From: Schmidtea polychroa
Taxonomy: Eukaryota
Direction: 5' to 3'
Assembly (NCBI GenBank): GCA_044892525.1
Contig: CM097885.1
Location: 18,726,001 to 18,790,000, forward strand
Length of the DNA stretch: 64,000 bases
Positions 4,650 through 62,701 of the stretch are shown piece by piece. The translations under genes and the position numbers were made by a program. The notes beneath the pieces are model-generated. The model had not been told where the DNA came from, made no database searches, and saw only the letters and a list, made by a program, of their open reading frames with translations. Position 1 is the stretch's first letter. Every line of letters starts with the position of its first letter.

Positions 4650-6413
4650 TCTCCTAATCGACTATTTTTACCATAGTAGCAACTCTTATTTAGAAGTAAA
4701 ATCTTTATCTACATTTATGTAAATACGTTTTATAAATAAATTTTTAAGTTACATTGAAGCGTAAAATTTCCAATTTGGAAATTTACAATAGATTTCTAAT
4801 CAAAAAAATTTGACAAGTTTGAACAAGAAAACTTATGCATCAGAATCTTATAATTTTTACAAAAGGTTTTTATGTACAAGAAATAAAATTCATATATGTA
4901 ATAGCAAACAAATAAAAGTTTGATAAGCAAAAATAATTTCCCATTATACATATTAAAAAAATTAAATTTAAAATAATAATTATTGTTTAAAATTTTGGTT
5001 CCTACATACCTACTTGGAATATTGAAGTCATTGTGATTTTCTACACGTATTAAAACAAAAAAAATATTTTTTAATTTGCCAATTGTTTGTTGAAGAATGA
5101 AATAAAAAAACGAGCATGTAAATAATTATTAATTATTTCTTTAATACGGGCTAAAGAAACCGAAAACTATTTTAACTGAATTTAGTCTAGATATTTATCA
5201 TTAATTAAATTATGTAATTAAATGTAAATATGGACTCACAGAACCTTTTGTGGAATAATTAATTTTTTTATAAAATGCTTTTTGCAAAATATAAAAGTGG
5301 GGAAAAGTGAGTCATCTGGCACAAAGTGTTCTGATTAGCTGAATAGAATCTTGACTCGTCTAAATGATGGCCCATGTTGTTATGAATCGGCAGACATTTT
5401 GGTATGATTTAGCGAGTATTACAATGAGGAATCTCGAAAATATAACAAAGACAATGAATCATTGAAAACCTTTGTTTGGCCAGTCAGAAACCTTTTTTAC
5501 GATCGTAATCGTTTAATTTTTATATAGGGCTTTCTTTCAGAAATATAAATTTTAATTTTTTTAAACAAGAAAAGACATACATCTCTTTAAAGAGTAAAAG
5601 ATGTATCTTCATTTCTTACCCAAACGTTATTTTATGAATCAGCACCGCCAAAGAAAGCATGTTGGATCATGATGTCCAAGGTTACACGAGGGTCGAAGGT
5701 CACTAAATTAGGTATTTAGTGGCTCCCTGAAACACCTATCATTTTTATGAATTTCATGTTGATTGAAAGAATATTTAAAAATTTAAGGTTTTAATGTTAA
5801 TTCTAAGATAAATTTAATTAATTTCTTGATAATAACTGTATTTTTATTGACTTGTTTTTTAATTTAATTTTAAATAAAAATTATTTTTAATGACAGGTTA
5901 ATAATTAGAGTTTTTACAATAATCAAGTGATAGGATAAATTTTGATGATGATGATGACTTTGTAATGATATTGAATTTGACTAAATTATTTTTTCAATAA
6001 TTTTCTAAGAATATTTCCATTTACACATTGATAAACTTTTAAATATTAAAAATCATAAGCTAAAAAACCAGTTAACTTTATCAAGGACAGATAAAATATA
6101 TTTGAAATCTACTTGAAAATTATTGTAGGAAATACTGAAATTTGTGATTTAATTTGCTATAATTGCTTGAAAATGATTGGCTGATTCGTTTGAAAATTAT
6201 GTTCAAATCAAGTATTTGATGTGGTGAAATATTTGTTGAAAATAATGATTTAAGTGAATTTGATCTTTGATAGAGTTCTTATTATATAGCTACTAAATTA
6301 TTTCAATGGAAGAATGTTTGGAGTCTGTAACATTTAGATAAAATTCATATTTTTGAAGAATTTTCTATGGGTTTTAAGGGGATTAATATATATTAAAGGG
6401 ATATGACCTCAAG

Positions 6414-6901
6414 TGGATGGAATTAAGGGTTGGATTTAGCAAGGGATTGGTTAAGATGAGAATATATGATTTTTAAGAGGGATTTAGTTGGTTGGATGTT
6501 TAAAGTGGTAAAATTATTTCGTGATGGATTGGTTAATGTGGGAATCTTTTGAATATTTAAATGGGTATTGTTCTTGTTGGAAATTTTTTAAGGGAAATTA
6601 CATTAGGAGAAATAGTGAATCAATAATAGTTCCTGTGTGAAATTATATTGTTTTGTTAGAGTGTGACGAATGTTAGTGCACAGTAAATTAATTTAGATTT
6701 CTGGTTTAGTAATGTAATTTCCCTTAAAAAATTTCCAACAAGAACAATACCCATTTAAATATTCAAAAGATTCCCACATTAACCAATCCATCACGAAATA
6801 ATTTTACCACTTTAAACATCCAACCAACTAAATCCCTCTTAAAAATCATATATTCTCATCTTAACCAATCCCTTGCTAAATCCAACCCTTAATTCCATCC
6901 A
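6414..6901. repeat. Perfect 192-bp inverted repeat (6414-6605 / 6710-6901) with a 104-bp spacer
   Basis: Arms are base-for-base reverse complements on inspection. Confidence 0.95.
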
Positions 6902-7879
6902 TTTTTAAATTTTCTATTAATTATCCAGGGTTTCATTAAATCGTTTAGTGTTAATAATCAATTTACTTGGTTTTATGTTTTGACAATGAAATATTTAGAG
7001 ATAATTGGGATTGATATCAACTTTAAACTATTTTTAAAAGAAAGTTGATCTTTATTGGAGGAAATTTATGATTTATCATGTGATTTTAATTAGATTTTTA
7101 GAAATTAAATCGGTTGAATATCAGTTAAGGGTAAAATATGATCATTTGAAGAAATATAGAGATTTTATTGAATGGATAAATTTAATATTTCAATGGGACC
7201 TAGTTGATTATAAGGGAATTGTACAGTAATATTTATTTTGTTTTAAATTTTGAGTAGAGTGATTTAGAACAAAAATTTAATTATAACTGGTTTTATCAAT
7301 AGATTTTATAAATCATATTGGATTAATATTTTTAGATGTTTTATAGGGAAATATTTGTGATAATAGGAATTAAAGGTAAATTATAGTCATTTAAAAGTAT
7401 TTTAATGAATCTTATTGATATAACATTAAGAGGAAGAATATATGATCTTTTACGAGTACTTGTCGTTAAAATACCAATCTTTAAATATTGATAGATATTT
7501 CAGGGAAATTTGATGCTTTTTAGATGATTTTAATGGAGAATGACACTTGGATATAACAAATGGTAGAATATTGTCATTTAAATTAATTTACTAGTTTATT
7601 AGATGTTATCATTAGTGGGCTTATGTCAGTCTCCTTTGGAATTTAATGATAATTATTTTTAGTGTAAATTGACGACTTTGATAATTGTAATGAATTTATA
7701 CTGAATTTTCTGAATAATTTGACCAATCAGTCAATCAATTTTAGTATACATGTATTACTTTTTAAAAATCATTGCAATTAATTTATTTCAATTAATTTAT
7801 TCAATCTAAATCAATTATCTACCAGATCTTATTACAAAATTCTTATTAATTAATTAACAGTTAAAGAAAAGCAACACAA

Positions 7880-10800
7880 CAATGGATTTCGGAATGCTGA
7901 AGAAGGAATTATTGAAAACCTTCGGTATAAGCGAGCAAGAAGCCTTTACAAAACTTTTACAGAAAAAAGTTATTAATGGCTGATAACTTGAATGTTCATG
8001 TAAAAGCTTACCAAGTGATTTGTCAAATCAACTAAAAATGTCAACAGCGTCAACAATGAATGAGTTAGTCGCTCAAGCAAAGAAAATTTTATGACAATGA
8101 AACGGTTGCAGTAGTAGTACCGAGATCAGATAGAGGAAAACAAGCCAATCGAAAATGCTATATCTGCAATAGTGCTAATCATGTGGTAAGATACTGTCCA
8201 GAAAGACGCAACATCAGATGTGCAAAATACTGTATTATGGGACATATTTCAAGGTTTTGCAAGTCGGGAAAAGGTCAATGTGGAGTCGGGTGTGGCTCCA
8301 AGAATTGTGAATATATGAGACTCCTAAAAGTAAATTGTGATGTAAAAGCATGTTTAGTTGATTCGGGCAGCACTAACACTATAGTAAAAGGAAATCCACG
8401 AAAATCCAGGACTGCGGTGGCGATGCTTGATGGTTCAATCATATATGCTGAGAGAAGTAAAGTTGATATATTGGTTGAAGATAAGTTATTTAATATTAAT
8501 TGTTTAATATACCCGAAATTAGTATTCAATTATGATGTAATTTTAGGAGTGAATGCTATTTATAGGTTTGTTGGAGTTCGATTGAATAAAGAAGCCATAT
8601 TCGGTTGCGAAGAAACACCTTGTCACGTAGCATGCTCTAGTAGTAGTATGTCAGAAATATTGAAGGAAAATATCTCTGTGAGATTTGAAAACGAGAAATG
8701 GATTGTCAAATGGGATTAGAAGTCAGAGCCGCCGAAATTTCTACCTAATAGAAATTCAAACTTTTATGATAATTGTAGTAAGGATCAGGAGACGATGCGT
8801 ATCTTGAATTCTTGGATATCTAACAGCTATCTAGTTGATTACGACGAGAAAGCAATGGGCAAACAGATCGGATCAGTACCTATCTATGGTATAATTCAGT
8901 TAAATAAAGCAAAAGTGCGTCCAGTTTTTGACTTTAGGAGTATCACTAAATATATTGATGTATATAATGGGAATGCAGATATCTGTTATGAAAAATTACG
9001 ATCATGGAGATGTTTAAGTAAAGAATTTGCAATTTTAGATTTATCTGATGCATATATGGAAATACACGTGGATAAAACCATGTGGTGATATCAATCTTGT
9101 ATGGTTAATGGGAAGAAATATGCGCTTACGAGAATGGTATTTGGATTGAATATCGCGCCAATGATAATGACAGAGATTGTGAATAAAGTATTGAACAACA
9201 ATGAATTAATCAAGAATAGCACAAGTTCATACATAGACGATGTAAGGAGTTAGTAAACCTCTATATATAAAATTATTATGGTTAAATGGTAGAAGTGAGA
9301 TCAGTTAGTAGAAATAATTATTTCTGTTAAATTTTTATATTTAAATTCTATATTAAATTATATTAAATTAAATCAATTAAATGTATGACTAGTAATTACA
9401 TTAATATTAATAGTTATCACGCCTCGGTATTTAAATACGCTAGTAAACGACACAAGTTTGAAGTTGTTATAAAAATAAATGCTTGAAGAAGATTTGAATT
9501 TGATTGCATCTAACAGACGATATATTCTTAGATGAATCTAAAGTTAAAGCAAATGAAGTAAGTGCAGAAATGCGTAAATTTGGTCTGATATGTAAAGAAG
9601 AAGAAAAAGTCAAGGATACTTTCAGTGTAAGAGTATTAGGTATTGATGTATTCCGAAAGAATAACGAACTACATTGGAAAAGATTAAACGATATTGGGAT
9701 AAATGAATTAAATGAAGGGCTTTCAAGAAGAGAGTTTTATTTGTTATATGGCCAGTTAGTTGGAATTTATCCTGTGTCTGGGTGGTTGTGGCCAGCTTGC
9801 TCATATATCAAGAGGCTATCCAGAGGAAATTTGGATGATTCAATAGAAAATCATATCGTTGACAAAGTAAAATGGTTATTAGAAAAAGTGAATGCAAGAG
9901 ATCCATCGTCAGGTATTTGGAGTGTTCCCAGCAATCAGACAGGCATAATTTGGTGCGATGCAAGTTCGATCGCCATTGGAATTATATTAGAAATGGAAGG
10001 TTCAATGGTTGAAGATGCGTGTTGGTTGCAAAAACCTGATGGTTCAAGACATATTAATTTGGTGGAATTAGAAGCGATTGTGAAAGGTATTAATTTATGT
10101 ATTAAATAGAATCTAAAGTACATCAAAATTAAATCCGATAGTAAATCAGTTGTGTGTTGGGTTAAGAGCATATTATCAAGCGACAGAAAAATACATACAA
10201 AAGCAAATTCAGAGTTGTTAATATGACGAAGGCTGTAGCGATTGAATATAAACTTAAAATGGACATTGAGTTTGTATCTACAGAAAATAACAAGTCTGGT
10301 GTATTACCGAGAGTACCAGCAAACTGGATGATTATTAAAAAAGAAGTCGCAGCTCTAGACAATCAAGGAAGCTCGAAAATGTGTTATTAGAGATTCACAA
10401 GTACTCCCATGTAGGGAAAAATCGTATTCAATTCTTAGCATCGGAAGCGGGGCCACTAAATGTGGATAATAAGATCTCAGAAATAATTGCAAGTTGTAAT
10501 CAATGCCTATCAATTGACTCAGCGCCAGTAACGTGGGAAAAGGTGAACTAAGCTGTGATGAAAATTGGTGCTGGTTAGCAATTGATGTAGCTAAATTTGC
10601 TAAAGATAAATATTTGACAATTATTGATCGTGGACCATCGAGATATGCAATCTGGAAGAAAATTAAAAATGAAAATGTAGAAGAGATATGTAATGCCTTA
10701 AATGAAGTGCTATATGAAAGAGGAGCTCCAAGTGAAATATTATTAGATAATTACTTGTCTTTAAGATCTAGAACATTTCAAGAATTAGAGGATAAATGGA

Positions 10801-11248
10801 ATGCTGAGTTGGTATTCAGAACAGTGAACCGCCCAGCGGGAAACGGGATCATTGAATGCAGTCATCGGACAATCAAATCTCTAGCAGCTAGGTCCTCAGG
10901 AACGATCGCAAAAGCTGTGTACTGGTTCAACAATACGCCAAACAACAATAATATTTGTCCATCTAGAGCCATATTTAGATATAATCCAAAGCTGAATTTG
11001 CCAAGCTACAATAAAAAAGAAATAATAATCGAAGCAAAATATTCTTCTGGTGACCCAGTATGGATAAAATCGAATTTGAATCTAAAATGCACAGAAAGAT
11101 GGAAAGACGGGCATATCATCAAACCATTATCAAATACAAAATTTTAGTCAGGTGTAACGGATATAATATGCCGCGGCACGAGGGCGATATTAGAAAAAGA
11201 GTTTTTAAAGATTCAGATGAATCTGGTGTGGATGTAGGAATAGTGTAA
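7880..11248 (+). mobile_element. Decayed Gypsy-type LTR retrotransposon internal region (gag-PR-RT-RH-IN); no LTRs seen
   Basis: Zn knuckles CYICNSANHVVRYC / CAKYCIMGHISRFC; protease LVDSGS; RT VRPVFDFR, LDLSDAY and (S)YIDDI; RNase H WCDASS..HINLVELEA; integrase LAIDV..ILLDN..GNGIIECSHRTIK; multiple stops and frameshifts. Confidence 0.93.
9241..9515 (+). mobile_element. Solo LTR (same family as the element at 34690-39235)
   Basis: TGTAAG...CTAACA, 275 bp; 5-bp TSD GACGA (9236-9240 / 9516-9520); closely similar to the reverse complement of 34690-34973. Confidence 0.96.
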
Positions 11249-12360
11249 TATTAAACAATTAATGTTTGAAAAAACGTGTTTAGTCTTACAAATGCATTTT
11301 TACTTCGCAATGATAAGTCAGTAGTAATCAACTAAAATTTAAGCAGATCTTTTGTGAATTAGAATTCTATAGTCTTTCGTTGTAATTTTATTTTCAATTC
11401 CCCGTGATATTTTAAAGTGGTTGAGTTGACAATAGTTCTCATTCATTTTTGACGACAATCATCATTGTTAGTATCTAGTTAATAGGTAGGTGCGGAGTTG
11501 AGTGTAACCAATACCCTTACGACCAATACCTATAGAGGGACAAAACATCCTGTCGGATAAGCTCAGACTATATATAATAAAACGAATAAGTATTTATTGA
11601 ATAAGCATGCAATTTTTACTTTTCAATAATAAGTCAGCAGTAATCAATTAAAAGTTAAGCAGATCTTTTGTGAATAAAAATTAGAATTCTATAGTCTTTC
11701 GTTGTAATTTTATTTAAATATTTTTGAATTCCACGTGATGTTTTAAAGAGGTTGACAATTATTCATTTTTTGACGAAAATCATCATTTTTTGTTAAATTT
11801 AGACATTTATAAAAGGTTTTTCTATTGATTGTAATTAAAATTATTTTTGAATTCTAACACAAATAAAGAAATTTATTTATTTAAAAAGTATTTGATAAAA
11901 TACAATGAAGAATGCTTAGTTGGTTGTAAGTAGCTAGTTGTAAGTGATTAGTATCTAGTTGTTTGAGACCTAGTTAGTACTTGTTATTTGGTACCTAGTT
12001 CGTTGCTTGTTGTTGGGACCTAGTTATTAACACTAATCTGTTAGTTGCTAGTTTTAAGTACTTGGTATCTAGTTATTAGCCGGTTGTAAGTACTCAGTTG
12101 TAAGTATTTGGTACTTATTTGTTAGTACCTAGTAAAAATACTTAGTAGCTGGTAGTTGGTATCTGATTGTAAATAGTACCTAGATACTACCTAGTTGTTT
12201 GGTAACTAGTGGTTAGTTGTTTGTTAGAAGTACATTGTTGTAAGTATTTGGTATCTGGTTGACTTTCTAGATTTTGACAAGAATATAAGAAATATTCTAC
12301 TTGCTTAATTAAAAAGAGCTTATTATAAGCAAATACTTGATGAATAAATTTTATTAAGTA

Positions 12361-13336
12361 CACCTAACTGTGAAATATAACATTATCTATAATCTTAAAA
12401 AAAATCAATAAATATATATTATAGGAACACACAAACTTACCTGTGTGTAAAAATTTAATGCTACGAAATTTAACATATTTATTATAGGAATCTAAAAAGT
12501 GAGAGAAAATAATTAAGCATGCAAGCACAGCACACATAATGAAAAATACATACAAAATTAAGTAAAGTGTTTTTTATGCGAAATTAACATTGATTAACAT
12601 ATAATTAACATATCAATATTTTCAAATTATTTAAAAAGTTATGTACAAAAAAACTTTTGAATCAGATTCTGACTGCTCTACCTTGAGCTTTAGGGAAAAA
12701 GAAGAAAATACATCGTAAGATTTAATTATAAAATAATTTAGAATATAAAATTTCTTTAGATTTACAGATATTGAAGAAGGTCCTTCGACATCTTTGAATT
12801 TGCAGGAAAAAAATCGCAAATCGTAAATTTTAATAAATTATTTTAACAAATTAATATTTTCATAGAATTACAGAAATAGACAAAATTCGAAAGAAGATTA
12901 CAAAAACTTAAAAAATATTTTATCCATTCTTTTCTAAATGTCTTTAAAAAATAAATGTTTGGTGATTACTTTACTTATTTATAATTATAAAAATATCTAA
13001 CTTACATTTTTACGAAATAAATCCAAATAAATCCAAATAAAATACCATAAAATTCCTAAAAAACACCTGAAATTTAATTATCAATGTTATATATTATTAA
13101 TATTATAAATGCTGACTAACAGTAATATTTAAGAACTTGAATAATGATCTCATAATTATATAAAATCAAAATTCAAGTCCTAAAAATTACTTCAATTCAA
13201 AAACTTACCTTAAAACGATTTTTGAAAAATTGAAAAAATGAAATTAAGTTAACATTGTCATATAATTGGTGACTCACCTCAGGTGGTGTGCACACCAACG
13301 TATATTATAGACAATGTTAACTTTCGCAGTTAGGTG
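12361..13336. mobile_element. Non-autonomous TIR element (~0.97 kb), TA-flanked; copy 1
   Basis: TIR cacctaactgtgaaa.taacatt.tctataat / attatagacaatgttaactttcgcagttaggtg; TA on both sides; near-identical copy at 62702-63645. Confidence 0.93.
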
Positions 13337-14466
13337 TATTTAATTGTTATTATGTTGTGTGTAGGTATGTGGTTATTAGTACTTGTTTGTAAGTACTTGG
13401 TTATTGTTGGTATCTGATTGTTGAATTATTATTAATATTATTATTATTATTATCATTGAAATGTGTATCTAAATTTATCTTTAAAAATTATTTATATTAA
13501 AATTTTCAATAAAAATTTCATTTCTCAAAAGTTGGTGGATATTCAAATTTTAAATTATTACTTTAATTTACTTATTTAAAAATTTTTAACTTTAATTACT
13601 TTAATTTAAATATATTACTTTAAATTAAAAATATTACATTAATTTTTAAATTTAACCTTAATTTACCTAAATAACTTAGACCTTAATTTACTTTAATTTA
13701 CTTATTACTACCAATTCTCATCTTAATTCAAAATTTAATACTTAATTTTAAAATTTAGTGCTTCATTTGCTTATTTACCAAATATAACCCTAATTTACTA
13801 TTGTTATTATTAGTAGAAGTTAATTGAAATCTGTCTTTGAAATTAATTTAAAAAAAATCTGTATTTAATTTTGCCTTTGAAAATTATTTCATAAAACTTT
13901 CAGCTTAAATTGAAAATTATTTCATAAAATTTTCCATTTAAAATTTTTTTCTCAAAAGCTGGTGGTTATTTAAACTTTTTGATAATAAATTTAAAATTAT
14001 TACTTTAATTTACTTTACCATTGATTACTTAATTATCCTTAATTTACCTATTTATCATTGTATTGCTTAATTTAACATTTTGCACTATCATTTACTTATT
14101 TACCAAGTATATTTACATATTTAACCAATAATTTCACGTGGTCATTGATTAATTCACAAAGATTTGCATCTAAAATTAATATTGAAAAATATTTCATAGA
14201 AATTTCAATCTAAAATTGTAATTGAAAAATATTTCATAAAAAATTTCATTAAAAAATTTCATTTCTCAAAAGTTGGTGGTTATTCAAACGTGTTGATAAT
14301 AAATTTAAAATTCTTACTTTAATTTACTTATTACATTAATTATTTTAAATTTTAAATATTACTTTACTTTAAAATTGCAGATCATCGATTATTTAATTTA
14401 AAGATTTCGACCTTGTATTACTTGATTTAAAAATTTAGACTTTTGATTCCCAAATATATTCATTGA

Positions 14467-15213
14467 TTACTGTTTAAATTTAACAAGCATCAGATCATTT
14501 TTATTAACACTAAAAACATCCAAACTGTTTTTCATAAAGCAACACTTGATAACCGCTACAAAGCCACTGGGATCAGTTTTGAATAATAACGGTTTGTCCA
14601 TTTCAATATCATAAGATAATGCTATCATTGAACAACTTAATGGTCGCATCTCAGCCGATTGGGTGTAAAGCTGATTAATATCCGCAATACAACGACATAT
14701 TATGTCACGAGGCATTTCATATCCATTTTTATATTTAAATCGAGCTGCTTCCATTTGTGCACGACATACTTGAGATCGGCAATCAAGGATCATACCAGTC
14801 ATAACACCTCCAGTACTTTCAGTAATATTAAACAATCTTGTAGCTGAACTCTTCTCAATCATTTTATCTGGAACTTTTCTTTGTGTAGCTACTACATCAC
14901 AATTATTGCCTCGAATACCAACGGAAAGCAATCCACCAAATAAATTTGATATTAGTTGGCCAAAAACACCATTAACGTTATCAGGATCTCTTGGAGTCAT
15001 AAAAAAGGAACCATCAGTTTCGTTGGTAGTATTTCCCATTTCCATTGAGTTATCAGATTCAAAAGAACATTTGGTATTTCCCATTTCCATTGAGTTATCA
15101 GATTCAAAAGACCATTTGGTATTTCCCATTTCCATTGAGTTATCAGATTCAAAAGAACATTTATCCTCGATTATATTGCTTGATTCATAAATTTCTTCAT
15201 TAAAAGCAGCCAT
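14467..15213 (-). pseudogene. Chimeric ORF: RNF115/126-like N-terminal fragment (with 3x45-bp repeat) fused in frame to an internal fragment of 20S proteasome alpha subunit (PSMA6/alpha1 type)
   Basis: GGLLSVGIRG..TQRKVPDKMI..GVMTGMILDCRSQV.RAQMEAARFKYKNGYEMP..IADINQLYTQSAEMRPLSCSMI..KTDPSGF matches PSMA6; N-terminal ESDNSME..GNTTNETDGSFFMTPRDPD is shared with 45236-45480. Confidence 0.85.
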
Positions 15214-16112
15214 ATTTAATCGGAAGAAAAATAAATTCCAAAAAACCGAAATCGATAAGTAAAACTAACAATAATTCGAATTCAGCCAAATAAGACACAC
15301 AAAAACAAACCTTACACCCAATCACAGCTCCACACCACAAACCATCCCCACAATTTTTACGCGTCTGTGTGCGCACACAACCAAAACCAAAGAAAGTAAA
15401 AAGCGCACACAGACACGAGCATCGAATTAATCAGATTACTTTTAATTTTAAAATTTGAGACCTTAAGTTACTTTAATTCAATTTTAGACCCTTGACTTAC
15501 TTTAATTCAATTTTTAGACCCATAATTTACCTATATATTCTTAAATTATATTGAAAATCCCAGGACCAAGGAGAACCACCCTAATAATACTTAGAAATAT
15601 CCATGCTTTTTTAGTGATAGTCGGATTTTCTACTGAAAATCCCAGAATCAACCAAGACTCCCTCACTATAATCAGAAAAAACATAGCTTCTTTAGCGAGA
15701 ATTGAATTTTGTATTGAAAATCCAATGACCAAGGAGACCCCCCACTATAATCAGAAATTTTCAATTACATAATCGTAACTACCTACACACTAATGTCAAA
15801 AGTTTAAAATTTTATAAGTTTTTGTTTGTTTTAGTTTTTATAACATTTATAGTTCATATGTCGTTGGAAAGAAGAGAAAATTATCTATCTAATGATATAT
15901 ATTAATTGAATAGAAAGGTATCAAAAGCATTTTACATAAATTTACAAATGTTTCAACCCTTGTGTAGCCTTTGACTCTGTAGTATAACATATTCTCTATG
16001 ATAGTGCTAAATTGTTTATTTGTTGCAAATAGAGAAAATATGGCGAAAAGAGAATTGATTGTAAGTGGTTCGTTAGATATTTGTCAAGAAGGGGAAATAT
16101 TTGTGAGACTTA

Positions 16113-37900: not shown

Positions 37901-37989
37901 CTTGCTCCTGTATCTAGTAAGCATTTCATTCTATACCACTGAATTTCAAGAGTTGTACTCGGTCTACCTTGCATTTTGTCATAACTCAA
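34969..37989 (-). pseudogene. Gypsy pol (PR-RT-RNase H-IN) split by one in-frame TAA at 36346-36348
   Basis: LLDTGA; RLCLDFRQLN; YLDD; DTDAS; HFNHYL*GKRFVLRTDHKA; integrase H..H..CEAC, MDICGP, HVDCG, GVIERQFR; GPY. Confidence 0.95.
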
Positions 37990-38360
37990 TTTCGGTCGTT
38001 TCCATTCATCTTTAGTGAAAATATTTTGCTCCTCTGATATTTCATTAATCTACCCAATTTCCTTTCTCTCTAATTTATCTTCTGCCTTCTTAATAAATTT
38101 ATAAACTTTTTCATTTACTATTTTATTATTATATTCTGCTTCTTCAATTTCATTATACTCTTCTTGATTCTTAGGATTATTATTATTATTTATTAAAGAT
38201 CGATCAGCATTAAAATAACTATAACATTTAAAATTATTTAAAGGAAACTTTTTAAAATTACAAATTTTATTACATAAAGGTTCTACATTATTATTTATAT
38301 AAGGATTATTTACATTATTAAAATTATTATGACCAATATTTACATCAATATCAAAATTAC

Positions 38361-41734: not shown

Positions 41735-42922
41735 ATGACTGCCGACTGGAATTATGACTCTGATGATGATCAAAAGAAAAATAATTTATCTAGTACTTCA
41801 CGGAAAAAGTCAGGTTCAAGTAAATCACCTGAGTCAAAAGTTTTTTCAGATACTGATGGTGCAAACAATTTATCTAAGGGAATTAGCAATCGTTCCAAAA
41901 CTAATCCAACTCCTGATCCATCAACTTGTATTGGAATATTCGGATTATCGAAAAAAACTAGCGAGCGTACATTATGGAAGACTTTTGGGAATTTTGGTAA
42001 GATTAAAAGTGTATCACTTATTGTAGATAAGTTCACGAAGGAATCACTTGGATTTGCATTTATTAATTACGAAGTGCTAGATTCCGCATCAAATGCTATT
42101 AAAGAAACAAATGGAATGACTTTGGATTCTAAAGTTGTTCGGGTTGATTATAGCATAACAAAAAAGGCTTATACGCCAACTCCTGGCAGTGGTTATAAAG
42201 GAAAAATTATCAGCCGGGGAGCTAGAGATATGAAAAAAAATTTTAAAAGAAAATATTCACCGAGGTCCCGATCAAGAAGTACAAGCAGAAAGCGGTCAGC
42301 AATGAAATATTTAAGTTCAAGACATTCACCCGTTGCTCCAATGTATATTTCAGATAAGAAAGATTCATTTAGAAGATATGAATCTAGAAGGCATTCTCCA
42401 GAACCTCGCTTCGAAATGCACTATTCCTCACATAGAAATGTCAGAGACTACTCTCCAATAAATAGAGAACAAAGAGGCTTCTCTCCTAGTAGAGATGATG
42501 CAAGAAATTATTACTCTGATAGACCGATTTATCCAACAAGGAATTATTCTCCTCCAAGAGATTTCCGTCGAGGTTATTCTCCAAGAAATGATTTAAGAGG
42601 TAACTCGCCATTCAAAACAAAATACAGTGAGTTTTGTCCCAGTGAAGATATGAGAATCGGTTTTCAGCCTATGCCTAATGATATAAATGACTACTCTATT
42701 AGGCAAGTGAGGGAGTTTTCTCCTGCAAGAAATGGTGGACATGTTTATTCCTCAGTTAAAAACTTTAGGAATATCAGCCCTATGAGGAAAGGTGTTAGAG
42801 TTTATTCTCCAACCAGGGAGTTAACCCCGGTTAGGTATGGGTACAGACAATATTCTCCCGTTAGAGTTGAAAAATATAAAGATCGCATCGCGGTTGACGA
42901 TAATCAGCAATTTTTTTACTGA
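41735..42922 (+). CDS. tra2: Transformer-2-like RRM / RS-rich splicing regulator, intronless, 395 aa from first ATG
   Basis: PDPSTCIGIFGLS..TSER.L..F..FGKI..V.LIVD..SLGFAFINY..NGMTLDSKVVRVDYSITKKAYTPTPG is the Tra2-specific RRM plus linker; RS tract follows. Confidence 0.9.
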   Translation: MTADWNYDSDDDQKKNNLSSTSRKKSGSSKSPESKVFSDTDGANNLSKGISNRSKTNPTPDPSTCIGIFGLSKKTSERTLWKTFGNFGKIKSVSLIVDKFTKESLGFAFINYEVLDSASNAIKETNGMTLDSKVVRVDYSITKKAYTPTPGSGYKGKIISRGARDMKKNFKRKYSPRSRSRSTSRKRSAMKYLSSRHSPVAPMYISDKKDSFRRYESRRHSPEPRFEMHYSSHRNVRDYSPINREQRGFSPSRDDARNYYSDRPIYPTRNYSPPRDFRRGYSPRNDLRGNSPFKTKYSEFCPSEDMRIGFQPMPNDINDYSIRQVREFSPARNGGHVYSSVKNFRNISPMRKGVRVYSPTRELTPVRYGYRQYSPVRVEKYKDRIAVDDNQQFFY

Positions 42923-44720: not shown

Positions 44721-45235
44721 ATTTTAATAAAACTATGAAAAATTTAATGTATATTATAATAAATAAATAAATATCTTACTTCTTTATTCATTATTTTTAA
44801 AAAAATCTTAAAATTAACTAAAATCCAGAACAAAGCTTATTTGACAAAGCTAAATGAATGTCTCATTTATGATAATTAAATGCGCTTTGGTGTAGTGTCG
44901 AACGAAATCGTCAGTTTTTTGGGGAAATATATGCCGTCTACCAATTGGTCAGTTAATGAACGGTGATTAATTGTCGATTCTCGCGTCTGTGTGCGCTTTT
45001 TACTTGGTTGATTTGAATTGTGTGCGCACACAGACGCGGACTATTGTGAGTATTATTTTTAAGTTTATTTGATCGAGGTCAGAGTTTTTGATGGTATCGA
45101 GTTTTGGGTGGATGTTTCGAATGGTTTTTAAAAAGATATTTCTGATCGAGTTGAATCTTGAGTCTTCGAATTTTTGAAATTCCTGTGCTTTTGGCCAAAT
45201 ATATGATTTCAAATCAAGTTTTTGAGATTTCTTCA

Positions 45236-45660
45236 ATGGATTTAATTAACGAATCAAATGATCATGCTATTCAACGCAACAGGGGCGTTCACATATCTCA
45301 GAATGGTAAATGTGTGACGTGCAAGGATGGATTTATTGAAAGACTTGAATCTGATAACTCAATGGAAGGTAATGATGATGCCTTGAATGTTTTTCATATT
45401 ATTCGTCATGTTCCTGTTGGAAATACTACAAACGAAACTGATGGTTTCTTTTTTATGACTCCAAAAGATCCTGATGTTTTCAGATCAAAGTTTTGACAAG
45501 TGTGTAACGAGTATTAAGAATCAATTTGAACAAAATGGTCCTCCACTAGCAAATGAGGCAGATATTGAGAAATTACAAGTCAAGAAAATCACCGCAGCTA
45601 ATGATACAGGTTTCAGTTGTCTGTCAGATTATGAGGTGGCCGATGAAGTGTACGAGTTTC
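45236..45660 (+). pseudogene. RNF115/RNF126-like E3 ligase remnant (Zn ribbon + start of RING-H2), frameshifted at ~45480
   Basis: GKCVTCKDGFIERLE resembles CPRCESGFIEEL; IKNQFEQNGPPLANEADIEKLQVKKIT..SCLSDYEVADEVYE resembles [34 protein letters not shown]; RING truncated. Confidence 0.72.
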
Positions 45661-48179
45661 TCCGTCGAGAAACGCAGACGATTACTAAGACGATACTAAG
45701 GACCAATCTTCAAAGGACAATTAAACAAACGCAATGTGAACTTACATTCACTTTACTAGGCAATGATGCATATACGTCAAGAGGATAGTTTTCGACAAAA
45801 GGTGATCTCCGCTTCTCAGAACTACTAGTTCTCAGACACTTCTTGGTTTCATAGACCACCGTTATGTCTGTTTCAAGTGTGTGTGGTTCCTAATTTATTT
45901 CTTTAACAAACTTCACCCATAGGACATTTCTCTTAATTTCACGTAATTGTAACGTATCAATCTTTTATTAACCTGGTAATGATCAATCGACAATTAAATT
46001 TATTAAAAAGGAAACTAACTAAAAAATGAATTCCCTATTGTTAAAGCTTAGGGTTGAACTACTTGCTATCTCTAAGGAGATGACGTGGTCTATAGCGATT
46101 ATTAGGATACCCTTAGAATAACCTTATTGTACCCTTGTAAACTGTATACAACTCTCACTTTAGTACTATATGATGTGGTTAAAATTCAAAATTGGAACTA
46201 CTACTCGATTGATCTACTCTTTTTATCTCAGACTGCCAATAGAAGTGTTTGGCAAAAATTGATTTTAGACCCAAGTATAGGCATAAAGACAAAATACATA
46301 GGAACACACTAACATAGCACTAAGTTAAGCTAAATAAAAAACATGTGAAAGCATCAAATAAACAAAATTAATAGAATTCACATCAGACAAGTAATAAATC
46401 AAAATTTAAAGATAAAAATCAAACAAAAGCAAGAAGTATTACATAAAATCCACAACAGAAGTAAACAAATTTTAATTAACGTTGATAAAGAGAAAAAAGG
46501 AACTGAAATCAGAAAGATTTCCATAAAATGATATCAAAAAGCAAATTAGAAATAAAATTTATGACAAAAACAAATGAGAAATCAAAACATTTGCAAAAAT
46601 CCATCATGGCCGCCAAACACCTTAACAAATTTAACAAAAAATAAACATTTGGAAATTAAAATTAATAAAAAGTAAAAATAAGTAACACAAAATTACCAGA
46701 AAATAAGTATTGCATATTAAATATACTGAAAACAACATAGAATAATCTGGGGAAACGCTCATATACATCATGGCGGCAAATCTAATTAAAAATAAATAAA
46801 ATTTGGAATATAAATACAAGTAGATTTTAAAAGTTAACCTTGATGTGTTCAGAGCATGCAGAAAAGAGAGAAACAATATTCAACCAATATGGATGCAGAG
46901 GCTGGCACATCATCTACAGACTGCTATAGGGCGTCTCAACGCGAACAGGATGTTGTGGTTTGGCTCATTCTAAGAGCAATTTTCAATAGCCATGTAGAGG
47001 CTAGGACATAAATAATAATAAGAATAAGTATAAATAATTAATAATTACTAAAATTAGAATAAATTAATATAAATAGTTTAGATAAATAAATAATTACTAT
47101 ATATGGAATAATTAATTACTATAAATAATAAAGACAAGTAGAATACTATAATAAGTAATTCATAAATAAATATATGTATAAATAGTAATATATAATTACT
47201 AAAATTAGTATTTACAATTATTAAATTAATATAAATAAGTCAGAATTTCTTAGTTAAGGGAGAAATAAATATTGTACGGTGCTGACAAAATCGATAACGA
47301 TTAAGCAGTGATTTACAGGAAAATTCTTTTCTACCAGTTTGTGAAGTTTATCATTGCAGAGAAAATAGCAGCAGTTACCAAGGCAATTAACCAGTCACAG
47401 TAGGTAGTTAGGAGCCCACTGCCGCAACCCCCCCCCCCCCTGCGGCAACTTTTTTTTTGCGGTAACTTTTTTATTACGCAATTGTTCCACACTATAGTGA
47501 GAGGGTCTCGATGGTCCTGGGATTTTCAATACAAAAAAAATTTTTTTCAATACAAAAACGATGGTCCTGGGATTTTCAATACAAAAAAATTTTTTCAATA
47601 CAAAAATCCGACTATCACTAAAAAAGCATGGAATTTTCAGACTATAGTGAGGGGGTCTCGATGGTCCTGGGATTTTCAATACAAAAAAAAATTTTTCTAT
47701 ACAAAAATCCGACTACCACTAAAAAAGCATAGAATTTTCACACTATAGTGAGGGGGTCTCCTTGGTCCTGAGTATTTCAATACAAAAATCCGACTACCAC
47801 TAAAAAAGTATGGAATTTTTCGCACTATAGTGAGGTGGGTCTCCTTGGTCTTGAGAACTTCAATAAAAAAAGGTGGTCTACACTAAAAAAGCCACGGATT
47901 TTTCAGACTATAGTGAGGTGGGTCTCCTTGGTCCTGAGAATTTCAATAGAAAAAGGCGGTCTTCAATAAAGAAGCATGGTAATTTAAGGTCTCAGGATTT
48001 TTTCAATACAAAAAGGCGGTCTTCAATAAAAAAGCATGGTAATTTAAGGTCTCAGGATATTTTCAATACAAAAATCCGACTATCAATAAAAAAGCATGGA
48101 TTTTTCGAATTAAATTAAGGTGGGTCTCCCTGGTCCTGAGAAAAAGGTGGTCTACACTAAAAAACGTGGTAAATTTTTC

Positions 48180-48760
48180 AATTAAAGTAAATTATGGCTC
48201 AAATTTTTGAATTACAGTAAATTATGGTCCAAATTTTTCAATTACAGTAAGTAATGGGTCTAAAAATTAAATTACAGTTAATTATGGTCCTAAAAAATTA
48301 AATTACAGTAAATTATGGTTCTAAAAAATTAAATTACAGTAAATTATGGCTCAAATTTTTAAATTACAGTAAATTATGGCTCAAATTTTTCAATTACAGT
48401 AAATTATGGTTCTTAAAAATTAAATATACAGTAAATAATGGTTCTAAAAAATTAAATTACAGTAAATTAAGGTCAAAAATTTTGAATTACAGTAAATTAT
48501 GGTTCAAATTTTTCAATTACAGTAAGTAATGGGTCTAAAAATTAAATTACAGTTAATTATGGTCCTAAAAAATTAAATTACAGTAAATTATGGTTCTAAA
48601 AAATTAAATTACAGTAAATTATGGCTCAAATTTTTCAATTACAGTAAATTATGGTTCTTAAAAATTAAATATACAGTAAATAATGGTCCAAATTTTTAAA
48701 TTAAAGTAAATTAAGGTTCTAAAAATTAAATTAAAGTTAATTAAGGTCCAAATTTTAAAT
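48180..48760. repeat. ~29-30-bp tandem array (aattacagtaaattatggt(c/t)c(t)aaaaaatta)
   Basis: About 20 degenerate units just inside the left TIR. Confidence 0.9.
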
Positions 48761-49074
48761 TAAGTAATCAATGGTAAAAAATTTTAAATAAGTAAATTAA
48801 AGTAAATTAAAGTAAATTAAAGTAAGATTTTAAAATTTAATTACAAAATAATAGAAGGTGTTTGAGAATTGAAATTTTTTAATGAAATTTTTTATGAAAT
48901 AATTTTTAAGTAATTTTTAATAGAAATTTTAATGAATTATTTTTCAATGGTAATTTTTAATGGAAATTTTTATGAAATATTTTTCAATGATAATTTTAGA
49001 TGGAAATTTTTAAGATAATTTTTAATGAAAATTTTTATGAAATATTTTTCAAAGATAAATTTTAATAATAATTC

Positions 49075-49745
49075 AACAACAAACCAACAACTTAGTACCA
49101 ACAACCAGTAACTTACGAACATGTATTAACAACCAGATACCTACAACTAGTTACTAACAACCAGTTACCTGATACCAAGTACCTACAACTAGATACTAAC
49201 AATATGTTACCAGATACCAAACACTTACATCTAGTTACTAACAATCAGTTACCTGCTACCTAGTACTTACAACTAGTTACTAACAACCAGATACCTGATA
49301 CCAAGTACTTATAACTAGTTACTAACAACCAACTACTTACAACTAGTTACTAACAACCAGTTACCTGCTACCAAGTACTTACAACAAGATACCAAGTACT
49401 AAGCACTGTCAACTAGATACCAAGCACTGACAACCAACATCAACCAGGTACTAAGCATTAATTACCAACTACTAAGTACCTACCAAGTACATACAACCAA
49501 CATCAACCAGATACCTACAACTAGATACTAACAACCAGTTACCAAGTACCTACAACCACCTACCCATTAACTAGCTACAACCAGCTAACAACTAGCTACC
49601 AACTACCAAGTACTAACAACCAACAACCAGCTAACAACTAACTACCAGATACCAACTACTTACAACCAACAACTAAGTACTAACAACCAGCTAACAACTA
49701 CATACCTAGTACTAAGCATTGTCAACTAGATACCAACCAGATGAC
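49075..49745. repeat. Strand-biased degenerate array (caactagttactaacaaccag / taccaagtac)
   Basis: Direct inspection; related tracts at 50260-51100 and, reversed, 11915-12270. Confidence 0.85.
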
Positions 49746-50129
49746 CACATGAAATTATTGGTTAAATAAGTAAATTAATATTTAATTTTTAAATTAACTA
49801 ATCAATGGTCTAAAATATTAAAGTCAATTTAAGATGAAAGTTTTCTGGGATTTTCAATGTTAATTTTAGATGCAAATCTTCGTCAATTAATCAATGACCA
49901 CATGAAATTATTAGTTAAATATGAAAATAAGGATTATATTTAGTTGTTAAATTAAGAAATAAAGGATAAATAGGTAAATTAAGGATAAGTAAATTAAAGA
50001 AAACAATGGTTTAAATTTTAAATTAAAGCTAAATGAGTAAATTAAAGTAAGATTTTTAAATTTATTATCAAAAGATTGAATAACCACCAACTTTTTTGAG
50101 AAATGTAATTTTTAATGAAAATTTAAATG

Positions 50130-50131
<2 letters not shown>

Positions 50132-50200
<69 letters not shown>
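50132..50200. repeat. (AAT)n microsatellite
   Basis: Direct inspection. Confidence 0.97.
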
Positions 50201-50203
<3 letters not shown>

Positions 50204-53200
50204 TTAATAATAATTATAATAATAATTAAACATTTACCAACAATCGGTTACTAAATATTTTTAACTAGGTGCTAACAAATAAGTACCAAATACTTACAAC
50301 TAGATACCAAGTACTAACTAACTCTCAAACAACCACATACTTACAACTAACTACTTACAATCAACTAAATATTCTTTATTATATTTTATGAAATGTATTT
50401 TTTAAAATTAATTTTTTATCTATATTCAAAAATATATTTAATTACAATCAGTAGAAAAACCTTTTCAAAATGTCTAAATTTAGCAAAAATGTTGATTTTC
50501 ATCAAAAAACCACAACTCAACCACTTTAAAACACCACGTGAAATTCAAAATAATTTAAATTACAATGAAAGACTAATGAATTCTAATTTACAAAACATTC
50601 TTCTTTTAAATGATAACTACTGAATTATTATGACAAAGTAAAAATCACATTCAATAAATACTTATTGTTGATCAGTTTTATTATATATACTCTGAGTTTA
50701 TCCGACAGGATGTTTTGACCCCCCTAAGGGTACAGGTCGTAAGGGTATTAGTCGTAAGGTTGCTGGTCGTAAGGATATTGTTAACTCTCAACCCCCACCT
50801 ACCCATTAACTACCTAACAAGTACTAACAACCAAGTCTCAAACAACTAAATACTAAACACTTACAATCAACTAACAACCAGGTACTAAGCATTATCAACC
50901 TACAACTATATAACAACAATCAGTAAACAACACTGTACCAACTACCAAATACAAGATACCAACAACTTAGTACCAACAATCAACTAACAACACATAAAAA
51001 TAATAGCAATTAAATACAAAATATTCTTCATCACATACAATATCTTCTTATCAAAATCTAAAAAGTCGACCAACTACTTACAACCAACAACTATGTACTA
51101 ACAAATTAATCTTTAAAAGAAAAATACTCATCACTTGAAAATTAGATGGAAAATTAATTGAACTCAAGGCATCAATAACTAGGTAAAAATTGATTAAATT
51201 ATTGTAAAAATTTAAATTATTCAAAATATACCAAATAATTATTATAAAAATTAAATTAATGGACAAGAAAAAATTCTAGTCATTAATCATCCAGTAAATA
51301 AAAAAAAATATTGATCATTCAAGTTAATATGAATCAACTAAGATAATAAATTAATAAAAATTTTGAAATAAGATCTAGTAGATAATTGATTTAGATTGAA
51401 TAAATTAATTGAAATAAAATTAATTTTAAGTATTTTTTTTAAAAGTACTCAAATTGATTGACTTATTTCTCAATATATTCAAAAAATCAGTATAAATTCA
51501 TTACAATTATCAAAGTCAGCAATCTACAATAAAAATAATTATCATTAAATTCCAAAAGAGACTAGATAGCTAATGATAACATCTAACAAACCAGTATTCA
51601 AAAGATTCCCATCGAAACCCTTCCCTCATTAAAAGCAACCGACTATATCTTTCTTAAAATGAAATATTTCCCATATTAACCGACTATATCCCTTTAAAAA
51701 TCATATATTCCCATCTTAACCCATCCCTCATTAAATTTAACCGACAATATCCCATCTTATCCGATCTCTCAGCAAATAATTCTACCCTTTTAAACATCTA
51801 TCCGATTATATCCCTTATTTTCCCTAAAGATTTCACCCACTTGAGCCCTTTAATATATATCAATCCTCTTAAAAACCTCAGAGAACTTCAAAAATATGAC
51901 TTTTAATTAATTGTTATAAAACCAGACAAATAGTAAGAGCCCATTAAAAGATCAAAATTCACTAAATTTTCTACAAATATTTACCATCAAATAAAAATAC
52001 ATCCAATTATCAAGAAATTAATTAAATTTATCTTAGAATTAGCATTAAATTATTAAATATTCATTCAATAAACATGAAATTTGCAAAAATGTTAGAAATC
52101 CACAAAAATAATAGAAATTTACAAAAATCAAAGAAATTCACAAAAATGATAAAAATTCATGAAAATGATAGATATCTACAAAAAATTAAGGAAATCCGCA
52201 AAAATAATAGAAATTCACAAAAATGATGGAAATTAATGAAAATGATAGAAATTCATAAAAATGATAGAAATTCATAAAAATGATAGAAATTTACTTGAAT
52301 AAAACCATCAACTTTAAAAATTATCAATACCTTAAACATCAAATTTGCCTAAATAATCATTCAAATAAAAGCATTAAATGATCAGTACCCTTGCGACATG
52401 TTGAATGTGAGTAGTACCCTTGTGAGCAATACCCATAGGGGGACAGAATATTTTGTCGGATAAACTCAGAGTATATATTAATTAACTCATTCAAATTTAT
52501 CATTGAATTAGTCAAATTATCGTAAATTTCGATAAAAAATCTAAAGTGGTAAGCAATGTAAAGAGAAATATTCTTTAAACTTTGATAGGACCAAGGAGAC
52601 ACCCTCACTATAGTCAGAATAATCCATGCTTTTTTATTGAAGACCGCCTTTTTCTATTGAAATTCTCAGGACCAAGGAGACCCACCTCACTATAGTCTGA
52701 AAAATCCTTGGCTTTTTTAGTGTAGACCACCTTTTTCTATTGAAGTTCTCAAGACCAAGGAGACCAACCTCACTATAGTGCGAAAAATTCCATACTTTTT
52801 TAGTGGTAGTCGGATTTTTGTATTGAAATTCTCAGGACCAAGGAGACCCCCTCACTATAGTGTGAAAATTCTATGCTTTTTTAGTGGTAGTCGGACTTTT
52901 GTATAGAAAAAAATTTTTTTGTATTGAAAATCCCAGGACCATCGAGACCCCCTCACTATAGTCTGAAAATTCCATGCTTTTTTAGTGGTAGTCGGATTTT
53001 TGTATTGAAAAAAATTTTTTTTGTATTGAAAATCCCAGGACCATCGAGACCCTCTCACTATAGTGTGGAACAATTGCGTAATAAAAAAGTTGCCGCAAAA
53101 AAAAAGTTGCCGCAGGGGGGTTTGCGGCAGTGGGCTCCTAACTACCTACTAGTCACTGCCACAGAAATTTACTATAAAAGCGAGAAGCAAAATTCATTTA

Positions 53201-53616
53201 GCAGAAACATTTGTTCAAGCAATTTTGCTTAGAATAAAATATCAAATTCAAAGAGAGATTAAAAGCTATAAAGCTTCTTGGTGAATTGATCACAGAAAAG
53301 GGAATCCAACCAATATTTTGAACCGTGAAGTTATTTGAATATATTTAATTTTCAATAAAAAATTTAATTGCACAACCCGGCCACAAGAACCAGCATTTCT
53401 GCCTATCCTACTCGTTGGAGATTAAATTTTCAGAGGGTTTAGTATAGGTAACGCTAGATCAAACTTGATCTAGTCGATCGCGCAAACTTCGGGAAATCCC
53501 TCCTTCTTGTCCCAAACTTTAAATACAGTGCTATGAGCAATTAGAGGGGATTCTGTAGGGACTCAGAACATTACTACCAGTGGTCTCAAGAAGTAATTTA
53601 TTTTATAATCTATATT

Positions 53617-54010: not shown

Positions 54011-54417
54011 TTATTGGCGGAGCCTGGCCTTTAGTTTCTTTAGTTTCTCCCGAATGTTCCGTCCAAGCCGCTTTCGTTTAGGCTTACTTTCAACTACTGG
54101 GGGATATATTGTTGCGAGCTCCACGGCCAGTGGCCGTATTTGTCTTGCCACGGGCTCCTGCACCAACTGCTCATTTCGCGCAGTTTCGAGCGCCCGCACC
54201 TGTAGTTTCAGGGCGCGGATCTCCATTTGGTCTTGTGCGGCCTGTGCCTGCAGCTGGAGGATCTGGGTTGTTTTCTTCTTCATTGCTTCGGGACTAAACC
54301 AGGTCCCCTCAAACTCCCGACATTTTCCTTTCAACTTGTCCACCCGGATTCGGAGTTCATCGGTTTGCTGCTGGGCCTGCTCACGATCCTTGCGTAGGTT
54401 CTCCATCAATTTATACA
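54011..54417 (-). CDS. Unknown coiled-coil protein exon, 'TWFSP' family, basic NLS-like C-terminus
   Basis: Open frame KCREFEGTWFSPEAMKK...SKPKRKRLGRNIREKLKK; preceded by ctaat + polypyrimidine + AG|TG acceptor; GC-rich island. Confidence 0.72.
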
Positions 54418-54694
54418 CTAAAAAGAGAGAAAAAAAATTAGTTTCCATTACATCCAAAAAGAAAGTTAAAACCAATGACTAGTAAAATTAATGAATCGAT
54501 ATTAGCATTTCTACTGAGGTATCTTCATACTCTTCCATCTATCAAGTAATGCACAGAACAAAAGAAAACACTTTATTCGAGAATAAACACCCGACGTCTA
54601 TTGGTATACAAAACGAAATTAAATTAAACACAACGACTGCTAATAGTTCATTCATATAAACGTGAGTTGTCTAAGTTAAATGAATTGTCCACAA

Positions 54695-55060
54695 TCACAA
54701 TGGTTGCTTGCGGGGCCTCCCCCTCTTCCGCGGAGTTACCTCGGCATTTTCGAGCTCCTCTAGGGATACCCCTTCTCTCTGGACCCGAAGTTGCAGTTCC
54801 AATCTCTTCAGCCGGCTCTGAGCGATTTCCACATCAACGGCCGCTTGATCTCTGGCCTCTCGGAGTGCGTTGTTCTCCGGCTCCGTCTTCACCCATGCCG
54901 GGGCATCCGGTTCTGGACCACTTCTGATAACTGGACCAAAGTTGTCAAGGTCCAATCCACGATTCCAGTCATGGATGCGGTACCAAATATACCGCGTACG
55001 GAGCCGGGTAATCATTTGTCGGTGGTTCTCTTCATCGCTGGAGTTACTTGATTGTGACAT
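54695..55060 (-). CDS. 121-aa unknown protein with C-terminal AT-hook (KRGRPRK)
   Basis: Intact ATG-stop ORF; canonical AT-hook core; paralog at 33161-33452. Confidence 0.75.
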   Translation of the reverse strand: MSQSSNSSDEENHRQMITRLRTRYIWYRIHDWNRGLDLDNFGPVIRSGPEPDAPAWVKTEPENNALREARDQAAVDVEIAQSRLKRLELQLRVQREGVSLEELENAEVTPRKRGRPRKQPL

Positions 55061-56099
55061 ATCTATGATTATCCAAAATATAAGACTGTTGATTATTACA
55101 TAGAAAAAAAATTGTTGAAACTCTAGGCTTAAGATTAAATTTCTACTAGCAATCCATAGCCAGGGAGTTCACCTAAGGGACTTTACTACAACATCTATCT
55201 TATCAAAGGCATAACCCGTTGATACCTGCCTCAGTGGTGACTTAGCCGACAACAGTCAAACAGAACAGACAACCCCCAGAGAAAAAATCTAAAATTTTGT
55301 ATTTTCGTCTGCGGTTTATTTATATTCATTATAATATTCGACCTGACGACGTAGTTTCTTCTTAAAATTGGAATTAAGAAGCAAATTCGATTGTTTTAAT
55401 GGTTCAAAACCATTAATTGATGGTTTACATTATAGTATACTATTTAAAATTTCTAAATTATCTAATTTAGATTTTTAATTTATTATTAACCCAATTGGCT
55501 TCAAAGAAAATCTTCGTCGACGGAGAGATTCGTTGTTGAATCGTATTCCAACGCCTCTTCGTCAGCGAAGCCGTTCATAATAGTCTAATCCGCTTTTTCA
55601 TATATTACTCCTCCTTCTTTAGCTTGTTCAGAATCTACTCCATCAACCACATTCCGTCGGAAATAATTGCTTTATCTGTGACTGGCTCCTCAGCATTACG
55701 GAAGATTTCGTTGTTGGTTGGTACGAAGAATGATCGATCTGAGAGATCTCCCTTCACGGTAGATTATTTTAAGATATGGTAACTCAGGTCTAGTTTAAAA
55801 TTTAACATTCTTTGTCAAGATTAGCAACAGTGATTATAATGATGGTATTTATGATTAATAATGATTATAGGGCACGAGTCCCAATATTAACTAGCATGCC
55901 AGGGTTCATGGCAATTCTACTTATAAAGCGCATTATGTAGTCCTACTTTGAATCACCTATTATAATTTTTAAAACCCAAACAAAAAATTTTTAGATATAC
56001 TTTGTGGATGGATAATTTCGAATTTTATTTTGATCCTAAGAATCAACTATGCTGTATGAGTAGGTGTTTATGGATTATGTTGCGGAGATTGGGAGTAGG

Positions 56100-57490: not shown

Positions 57491-58992
57491 TTATATACTA
57501 CAATTAGGGGTTGCTTCCATGGCCCCACTGTGACCACTTCCACAAACCTTAATGTTATGTGCTAAGTCAACCCTTTACGGCTGACCTTTAATAAATACAA
57601 AGAGTCAGACGGAGGTTTTCCTCGACCTAACTCCATGGCAGGACCATGAAGTAGTTCGACCTCCGAAGGACCCGAACAAAAAAGGGACGGTATAATAATA
57701 GATCGATATAATATTAATAATGCATGTCTGCATGTCCTATGAATTTAAATTTTAATAAATTGGATGCAGGACCGAACAACGACGCAGTAATACCAGTACG
57801 CCATTGAACATTCGTATATCATGGAAAAAATCAAAAGCAAGAGACATCAAAATATGCAATTACTTTAATTTTAACCTGAATAAATCATCACTACAATAAA
57901 AATGAAAAATAGATCCTCAGCCCAATAAAAATGAAAAAATAAATTATCAATATTATAAAAATGAAAAAATAAATCATCACTACTCACTATTTGTGTTGAC
58001 AAGATTTTTCTCAAAAATTGGCATAAAATGGTGATTGAATTATGCCCGAACTGTATACTGTGAACATAGCACCTGAAAATCCAACGTAGTGAGAAAACGC
58101 CAGATCGATTTTGATTTTCATGGAATAGGCAAACACAAGTGAACAGATTGTGGGTTCGAGTGTCAACACTACATGCAGATACATACCAACGATAACGTAA
58201 TAGTAAGCCCGTGACAGTTCTACACAAATCCATCGATGAGAAACCATTGGGTTATCTACTGCAAATCACCCGCAGTAGCACTCGCCAGGGAATCGTTCCA
58301 TATGCCATGCTCAACATTTTGTCATAATTTTCCGTTATCTGCCATAACAGTAGGTGAGTTCACCAGCCGATAATCTTGGGTTAGCAAAATCATCCCGTCA
58401 TACTAATATGTTAATTTCCGATTTCTGATACAATTCTCTGTAAATAATGGAGCTTGATGCATGCGACAGATAGTTAATAGCGTACGATCAAAAATCTTGA
58501 GTACACATTTTGGAATTACGGAATTTTAGCATTATAAGAGTTTATTATTAAAATTGATTAAATTTGTGAATTTGTTAAATTTTCATGTCTAATAATTGTC
58601 TAGAAAGGGTGAAAAGAGAGTTTACGAGACAAACCCGACTAATTTTCCTTCTAACTAACAAGTCTTTAAACATATTTGTAATGTTTCCGAGAAAATATTT
58701 AAATATTATTGTATTCACATAACAACAGGGCCTCTTTTTCGATAATAAATCACTATACCTAATGAGGCGATGCCCTATGTTACTGACCCGTTTTCTGTTA
58801 TTAAATTAGACAGAATGGTAAAGCTCGATTGTCTGGGGGGAATTTCTCTTGTCCGCCGACCTGTTTTTCTTTTCTTGTCTGAATAGTATAAGCAAATGGT
58901 ATGAAATTCGAGACAGTTAATGACTGGTTAATTCGAAATGATGGCTTTGTAAATCTAGTCTTCTTGTGATTATCTTTATTTCTTCTTTGCAG

Positions 58993-62648: not shown

Positions 62649-62701
<53 letters not shown>

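Follow-up and report, generated by a model that had tools for sequence, protein, structure and literature searches.

A 5752-nt element at positions 47399–53150 of a 64,000-nt stretch of the Schmidtea polychroa genome (assembly GCA_044892525.1, contig CM097885.1, positions 18,726,001 to 18,790,000 of the forward strand; hereafter the window) is probably a non-autonomous passenger of Maverick/Polinton elements that carries no genes of its own. The element belongs to a repeated, old family with many copies. The family appears to be new and is most likely a non-autonomous Maverick derivative. Judged from the sequence, the combination of a 6-bp target-site duplication (TSD), AG..CT ends and terminal inverted repeats (TIRs) of 0.5 kb fits the Maverick/Polinton group better than those other groups with 6-bp TSDs whose ends could be compared.

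The left end of the element is 5'-AGTAGGTAGTTAGG and the right end is CCTAACTACCTACT-3'. Read inward, both termini are AGTAGGTAGTTAGGAGCCCACTGCCGCAA, and the first 29 nt are the same at each end. These matching ends and a step in contig depth at about position 53150 confirm the boundaries proposed in the initial annotation of the window. The perfect TSD AGTCAC, also recorded there, is exact on both sides, and among the duplication lengths of 2–12 tried at the 47399/53150 boundaries it is the only one that matches. The probability of a chance match of this 6-mer is about 1.4e-4 to 7e-4, depending on flank composition. The flanks translate as AVIYRK..KAINQS and SLPQKF..SYKASW, in frames consistent with the duplication of one 6-mer. 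We take the flank translation to resemble the tail of a non-LTR (long terminal repeat) reverse transcriptase; Pfam found nothing there, and the resemblance is not used as evidence. The TIRs are near-identical and longer than 500 bp as previously described (581 and 527 nt); their alignment has 516 matching positions, 11 substitutions and two indels, one of 6 nt and one of 48 nt, so that the two repeats differ by 2.1% and two indels. Relative to the right TIR, the left one has an extra 48-nt tandem duplication and a longer run of C. The repeats are inverted and end in AG..CT, whereas those of LTR retrotransposons are direct and end in TG..CA. A terminal hairpin was considered and rejected, since folds of the first 100 nt were not clearly beyond those of shuffled sequences (z of -2.15 in one of four end folds, and -0.45 to -0.90 in the others).

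The right boundary was also located in contigs from four public runs of two studies, aligned to positions 52965–53560, in which summed depth does not equal copy number. The summed depth at 53125–53144 relative to that at 53165–53184 was 50.5x, 29.8x, 20.2x and 15.5x, a step present in four of four runs. If depth is assumed to be flat over the last 26 nt, the step is placed at 53149.9–53150.1, which is 5.9–6.1 nt into the mixed bin. The right flank is itself repeated, with variants. A chance pairing of TIRs and TSD, or an assembly artefact, is ruled out because the end of the element forms a multi-copy boundary in the four runs. The sequence also permits true ends one base farther outward, CAG..CTA, flanked by a 4-bp duplication GTCA. 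Such an arrangement would resemble that of Academ-like groups with YAG or TAG ends and TSDs of 3–4 bp, and position 53151 is compatible with the depth step. However, it requires two chance matches (about 0.054, from flank composition) and a mismatch of the terminal base pair (the TIR substitution rate is 0.021), and the apparent step is closer to 53150 than to 53151. We consider ends at this outer position very improbable.

The structure of the ends resembles that of known Mavericks. In vertebrates, Mavericks are flanked by 6-bp TSDs, and their TIRs measure 46–1447 bp and have the terminal motifs (AGT)2, (AG)3 or (AC)3A (PMC8097293). A TSD length of 6 bp is given for the Polinton among integrase-type elements (PMC10045372), and work focused on nematodes describes Polintons in general as having 5–8-bp TSDs and 100–1500-bp TIRs (PMC10748475). 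The element agrees with Maverick/Polinton elements carrying the motif 5'-(AGT)2//(ACT)2-3' in its 6-bp TSD, its AG..CT ends and a TIR length within their range. Its terminal hexamers are AGTAGG..CCTACT. The initial annotation described AG..CT termini starting with AGT-like repeats; the AG..CT part holds, and AGTAGG fits (AGT)2 in five of six bases, with AG repeated at a 3-nt step and the third base not kept.

The element was described as gene-less, and we found it to be so. Its longest stop-to-stop frame, of 114 residues, lies in a TIR, and no Pfam family reached the cut-off in 15 open reading frames (ORFs) of the element or in its six frames read through with X. The same read-through frames contained no PHROG family, and no Rfam family was present in the window. 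A sub-threshold match to ORC5_C (E 3e-4), which spans the AAT run and sequence rich in A/T, was dismissed as low-complexity. The genes of autonomous Mavericks, which encode pPolB, integrase, ATPase, protease and capsid, are thus missing from the element.

The interior is not made solely of satellite-like arrays, as had been claimed. Tandem arrays detected by TRF cover 2124 of 4644 interior nt (46%) and 3036 of the 5752 nt of the whole element. Four runs of 126–500 nt, 1264 nt in sum, have no internal self-match; the shortest of them overlaps the AAT run. The A/T-rich part of the interior contains unique runs at 50369–50682, 51105–51604 and 51752–52075, and 52409–52478 is an inverted copy of 50683–50753 at 80%. 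Another small element of the window, at 23730–24310, has GGCGGATTGTC-type subterminal repeats, and its interior (23941–24175) is 81% identical to 52336–52542.

Several observations weigh against the assignment to Mavericks or against the boundaries on which it depends. At 5.75 kb, the element is less than half as long as intact vertebrate Mavericks, which measure 12,723–24,620 bp (PMC8097293), and no remnant of a Maverick gene was found inside it with Pfam and PHROG in read-through frames. Protein-primed polymerases restore ends by sliding or jumping back across a short terminal repeat (PMC3480470); the sixth base of the element, G, disrupts (AGT)2, so that a jump back by 3 nt would probably mispair at one base. 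The 6-bp TSD was measured at one site. A drop in depth of 15–20% near the end would fit 53151 as well as 53150, and no junction at 53150 was present among the contig loose ends listed. An autonomous element with the same ends was not found in IMG/VR or JGI metagenomes: the terminal 28-mer had no matches in IMG/VR, and the JGI metagenomes contained no match for the terminal 22-mer or for the core of the subterminal unit. Three matches of a 16-mer in IMG/VR were judged to be due to chance because only 8–9 of the following 44 nt agree. The proposal of a Polinton-like non-autonomous element stands as regards the absence of genes, the end common to many copies and the fit of TSD, ends and TIRs; as regards a parasite of an active Polinton, no autonomous copy with the same ends was found in these databases.

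The element might instead be of foldback type, moved by a cut-and-paste DDE transposase producing 6-bp duplications, from hAT6 or an unclassified group, with the subterminal units and internal terminus-like words as transposase-binding sites; we regard this as rather unlikely. A hallmark of the Galileo/Foldback elements of Drosophila is long TIRs that are repetitive inside and differ in their number of units, and these elements share with the one studied here the variation in arm length and the gene-less copies (PMC3573991). Families of hAT6 with 6-bp TSDs exist (PMC12730594). Binding by a transposase would suit reiterated terminus-like words, and the window contains an uninterrupted, intact-looking hAT transposase frame of 596 residues with a BED finger and a dimerisation domain (17333–19123); nothing ties this frame to the element. 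On the other side, the AG..CT ends and AGT-like repeat fit Mavericks. The ends and TSD length of Galileo/Foldback differ from those of the element, and TSDs of the P superfamily are 7–8 bp long. Galileo belongs to this superfamily and uses its transposase (PMC3573991), in contrast to the Maverick enzymes expected for the element. IS3EU and GingerRoot, which like hAT6 share the 6-bp TSD with the element, are excluded because their ends are TA..TA or TG..CA (PMC10045372, PMC12730594), not AG..CT. Printed end sequences of hAT6 were not found for comparison.

Non-autonomous families are reportedly listed in the 2006 Polinton paper and in Repbase. Polinton-related insertions without polB occur in Pieris mannii (10.1101/2025.02.07.637071), two Maverick families of Drosophila amaguana are given as non-autonomous (PMC12694884), and Tlr1 is viewed by some as a non-autonomous polinton (PMC5499653). 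Polinton-N1A_NV carries a capsid gene (PMC11296320), and in anoles, according to a survey, non-autonomous copies are apparently absent (PMC3014272). Like the Pieris mannii insertions and Tlr1, the element is bounded by TIRs, would depend on or derive from Polintons and is missing the core genes. However, those elements retain genes, whereas the element has none and its interior is rich in minisatellites. One planarian genus shows an expansion of Mavericks, according to a preprint (10.64898/2025.12.11.693146). Polinton/Maverick elements are absent from the main text of the Schmidtea genome paper (PMC11410931), and the consulted parts of PMC6431247, PMC2836005 and PMC11410931 contain no end sequence for the family. 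It may already be included in the transposable-element libraries that accompany planarian genome papers as supplements.

An older relative of the element, interrupted by later insertions, is present in the same window (Table 1). Its 13 blocks cover 1974 of the 5752 nt of the element in the same module order. The relative, running from 15787 to 5736, lacks 60 nt of the spacer between the terminus and the subterminal array and then continues with the same unit array. Its far end and TSD were not found in the window, and Pfam and PHROG searches of its part at 5701–7883, read through, returned nothing at the cut-off. It had been suggested that the sequence retained by the element defines the needs in cis for replication, integration or packaging. 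The relative keeps the same module order at 70–86% identity; therefore, the interior is inherited family sequence, and a minimal cis set is not demonstrated.

The contigs show a similar loss of the spacer. Among the 14 joints listed, eight connect the subterminal unit to the last 20–35 nt and omit 69–134 nt. The short sides of the joints measure 18–27 nt, so that single rows are weak, and the pattern agrees with the 60-nt gap of the older relative. Variants of the family thus retain the terminal 13–30 nt and the unit array while the spacer is lost. The subterminal 83–101-bp unit (52965–53064) is up to ~100x deeper in the contig sums than the terminus, and because of this further subfamilies may carry it too, or it may exist as a free satellite.

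Recent mobilisation of the element, which had been proposed, is not demonstrated: the TSD is intact, yet the TIRs have diverged. The family may be Maverick-derived but have a helper that has died out or that bears different ends; it would then be immobile and persist as dispersed repeats and a source of satellite units. This possibility concerns timing and overlaps with the assignment to a Maverick passenger, and we hold it to be unlikely. It would agree with the TIR difference of 2.1% and two indels, with the old and broken state of the sole other copy in the window, with most aligned contigs being 90–99% alike rather than 99+, and with the excess depth of the subterminal unit. It is opposed by the perfect TSD and first 29 nt, and by the absence of a recognisable nested insertion in the element versus three in the older relative.

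The insertions within the older relative include one copy (12359–13342) of a 1-kb element, whose second copy, 94% identical, lies at 62700–63651. This element has TIRs of ~40 nt, and its first copy has TTAA at the ends. We presume that it is piggyBac-like. The relative also contains a broken gypsy-type LTR retroelement (~7880–11290) that holds an LTR-like copy at 9239–9515, and an intron-less fragment of proteasome alpha-6 joined to an N-terminus of 45-bp repeats (14467–15433), situated behind a hairpin CGCGTCTGTGTGCGC..GCGCACACAGACGCG. Among the ten best matches of the fragment at 14467–15264, all nine that are named are flatworm proteins, at 61–68% identity. The hairpin and part of the leader occur again at 44964–45475, with the proteasome part missing. 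Judged from this arrangement, the hairpin-led unit appears to be a gene-capturing element.

The element contains internal words resembling its own terminus. Within 49070–49750, 25 words differ by at most two mismatches from the terminal 10-mer ACTACCTACT, all in the orientation of the right end and none in the opposite one, and their usual form is ACTA-NN-TACT. The count of 25 was reached by 3 of 3000 letter permutations, by 1 of 3000 10-mers drawn from elsewhere in the window and by 2 of 572 TIR 10-mers, both lying at the terminus. The minisatellite region was picked post hoc, once the likeness had been seen. Two results weigh against significance: no internal word is within one mismatch of the terminal 10-mer, and, of 200 second-order Markov shuffles, 1 reached the count obtained with the 10-mer and 28 reached that obtained with the 14-mer. 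Over the whole element, with the terminus excluded, words of the ACTA-NN-TACT type number 35 on one strand versus 3 on the other, and over the span of the older relative, its insertions counted in, 17 versus 6. The A/C-rich array may simply have expanded from an internalised end.

Table 1. Positions in the window of the older relative and of the parts of the element.
Feature	Position	Strand	Remarks
Older, interrupted relative	5736..15787	-	starts TGTAGGTAGTTACG; 13 colinear blocks, 70–86% identity
Left TSD AGTCAC	47393..47398	.	exact copy of the right one
Left TIR	47399..47979	+	581 nt; opens with AGTAGGTAGTTAGG
7-bp G+C-rich stem TGCCGCA..TGCGGCA	47420..47447	+	within the 60-nt spacer missing from the older relative
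Subterminal array, 83–101-bp units, core CACTATAGTGAGGGGGTCTC..GGTCCTG	47485..48142	+	extends ~160 nt beyond the inner end of the TIR
30-bp minisatellite, 20.5 copies, 80% matches	48180..48799	+	
13-bp A/T array, ~15 copies	48870..49066	+	
A/C-rich minisatellite with words like the terminal 10-mer	49070..49750	+	smaller patches at 50230–50370 and 50780–51105
(AAT)32 microsatellite	50131..50226	.	
A/T-rich non-coding interior, mostly non-repetitive, ~1.7 kb	50369..52075	.	colinear with the older relative
19-bp array, 11 copies	52076..52294	+	
Segment 81% identical to 23941–24175	52336..52542	-	counterpart inside another small element
Right TIR	52624..53150	-	527 nt; closes with CCTAACTACCTACT
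Right TSD AGTCAC	53151..53156	.	exact copy of the left one

Directly to the right of the element, a perfect 59-nt inverted repeat (53558–53616 and 61252–61310) encloses a stretch of 7.75 kb. The stretch contains two related, G+C-richer ORF modules on opposite strands, 54011–55168 (-) and 58942–59605 (+), with a common EGTWFSP motif; one of its ORFs ends in the AT-hook-like sequence RKRGRPRK. No Pfam family reached the cut-off in the stretch, and it has no clear TSD. Elsewhere in the window, an intron-less RRM/RS gene (41735–42922; Pfam RRM_1) has an SP-rich repeat region at its C-terminus and presumably resembles Tra2. A gypsy-type LTR retroelement at 34707–39235 has LTRs that are 96% identical and long protease/reverse transcriptase and integrase frames.

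Based on the ends of the element and the variants of its family, we propose how it could be propagated. A Maverick would provide two enzymes in trans: a protein-primed polymerase starting at the AG(T)AG end and a retrovirus-type integrase making a 6-bp staggered cut. The cis signals would consist of the terminal 13–30 nt and the array of subterminal units, because variants of the family keep both and drop the spacer between them. The interior would be inherited filler enlarged by slippage. We hypothesise that the internal terminus-like words are binding sites. More speculatively, the family might be a long-lived satellite of a flatworm Maverick, comparable to defective-interfering genomes. Its ~35 degenerate same-direction internal copies of the origin word AGTA-NN-TAGT, which also occur in the 20–30% diverged relative, would recruit or titrate the terminal-protein polymerase or the integrase of the helper and thereby confer a replication advantage. 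We consider this satellite scenario doubtful, with a small chance of being correct.

The family combines variable spacers with a constant terminal 13–30 nt and constant subterminal units, which marks the latter two as candidate cis signals. If the enzymes of the helper bind the internal words, these words would define the origin word, and, should the family be such a satellite, AGTA-NN-TAGT would be the word by which the replication origin of a Maverick is recognised.

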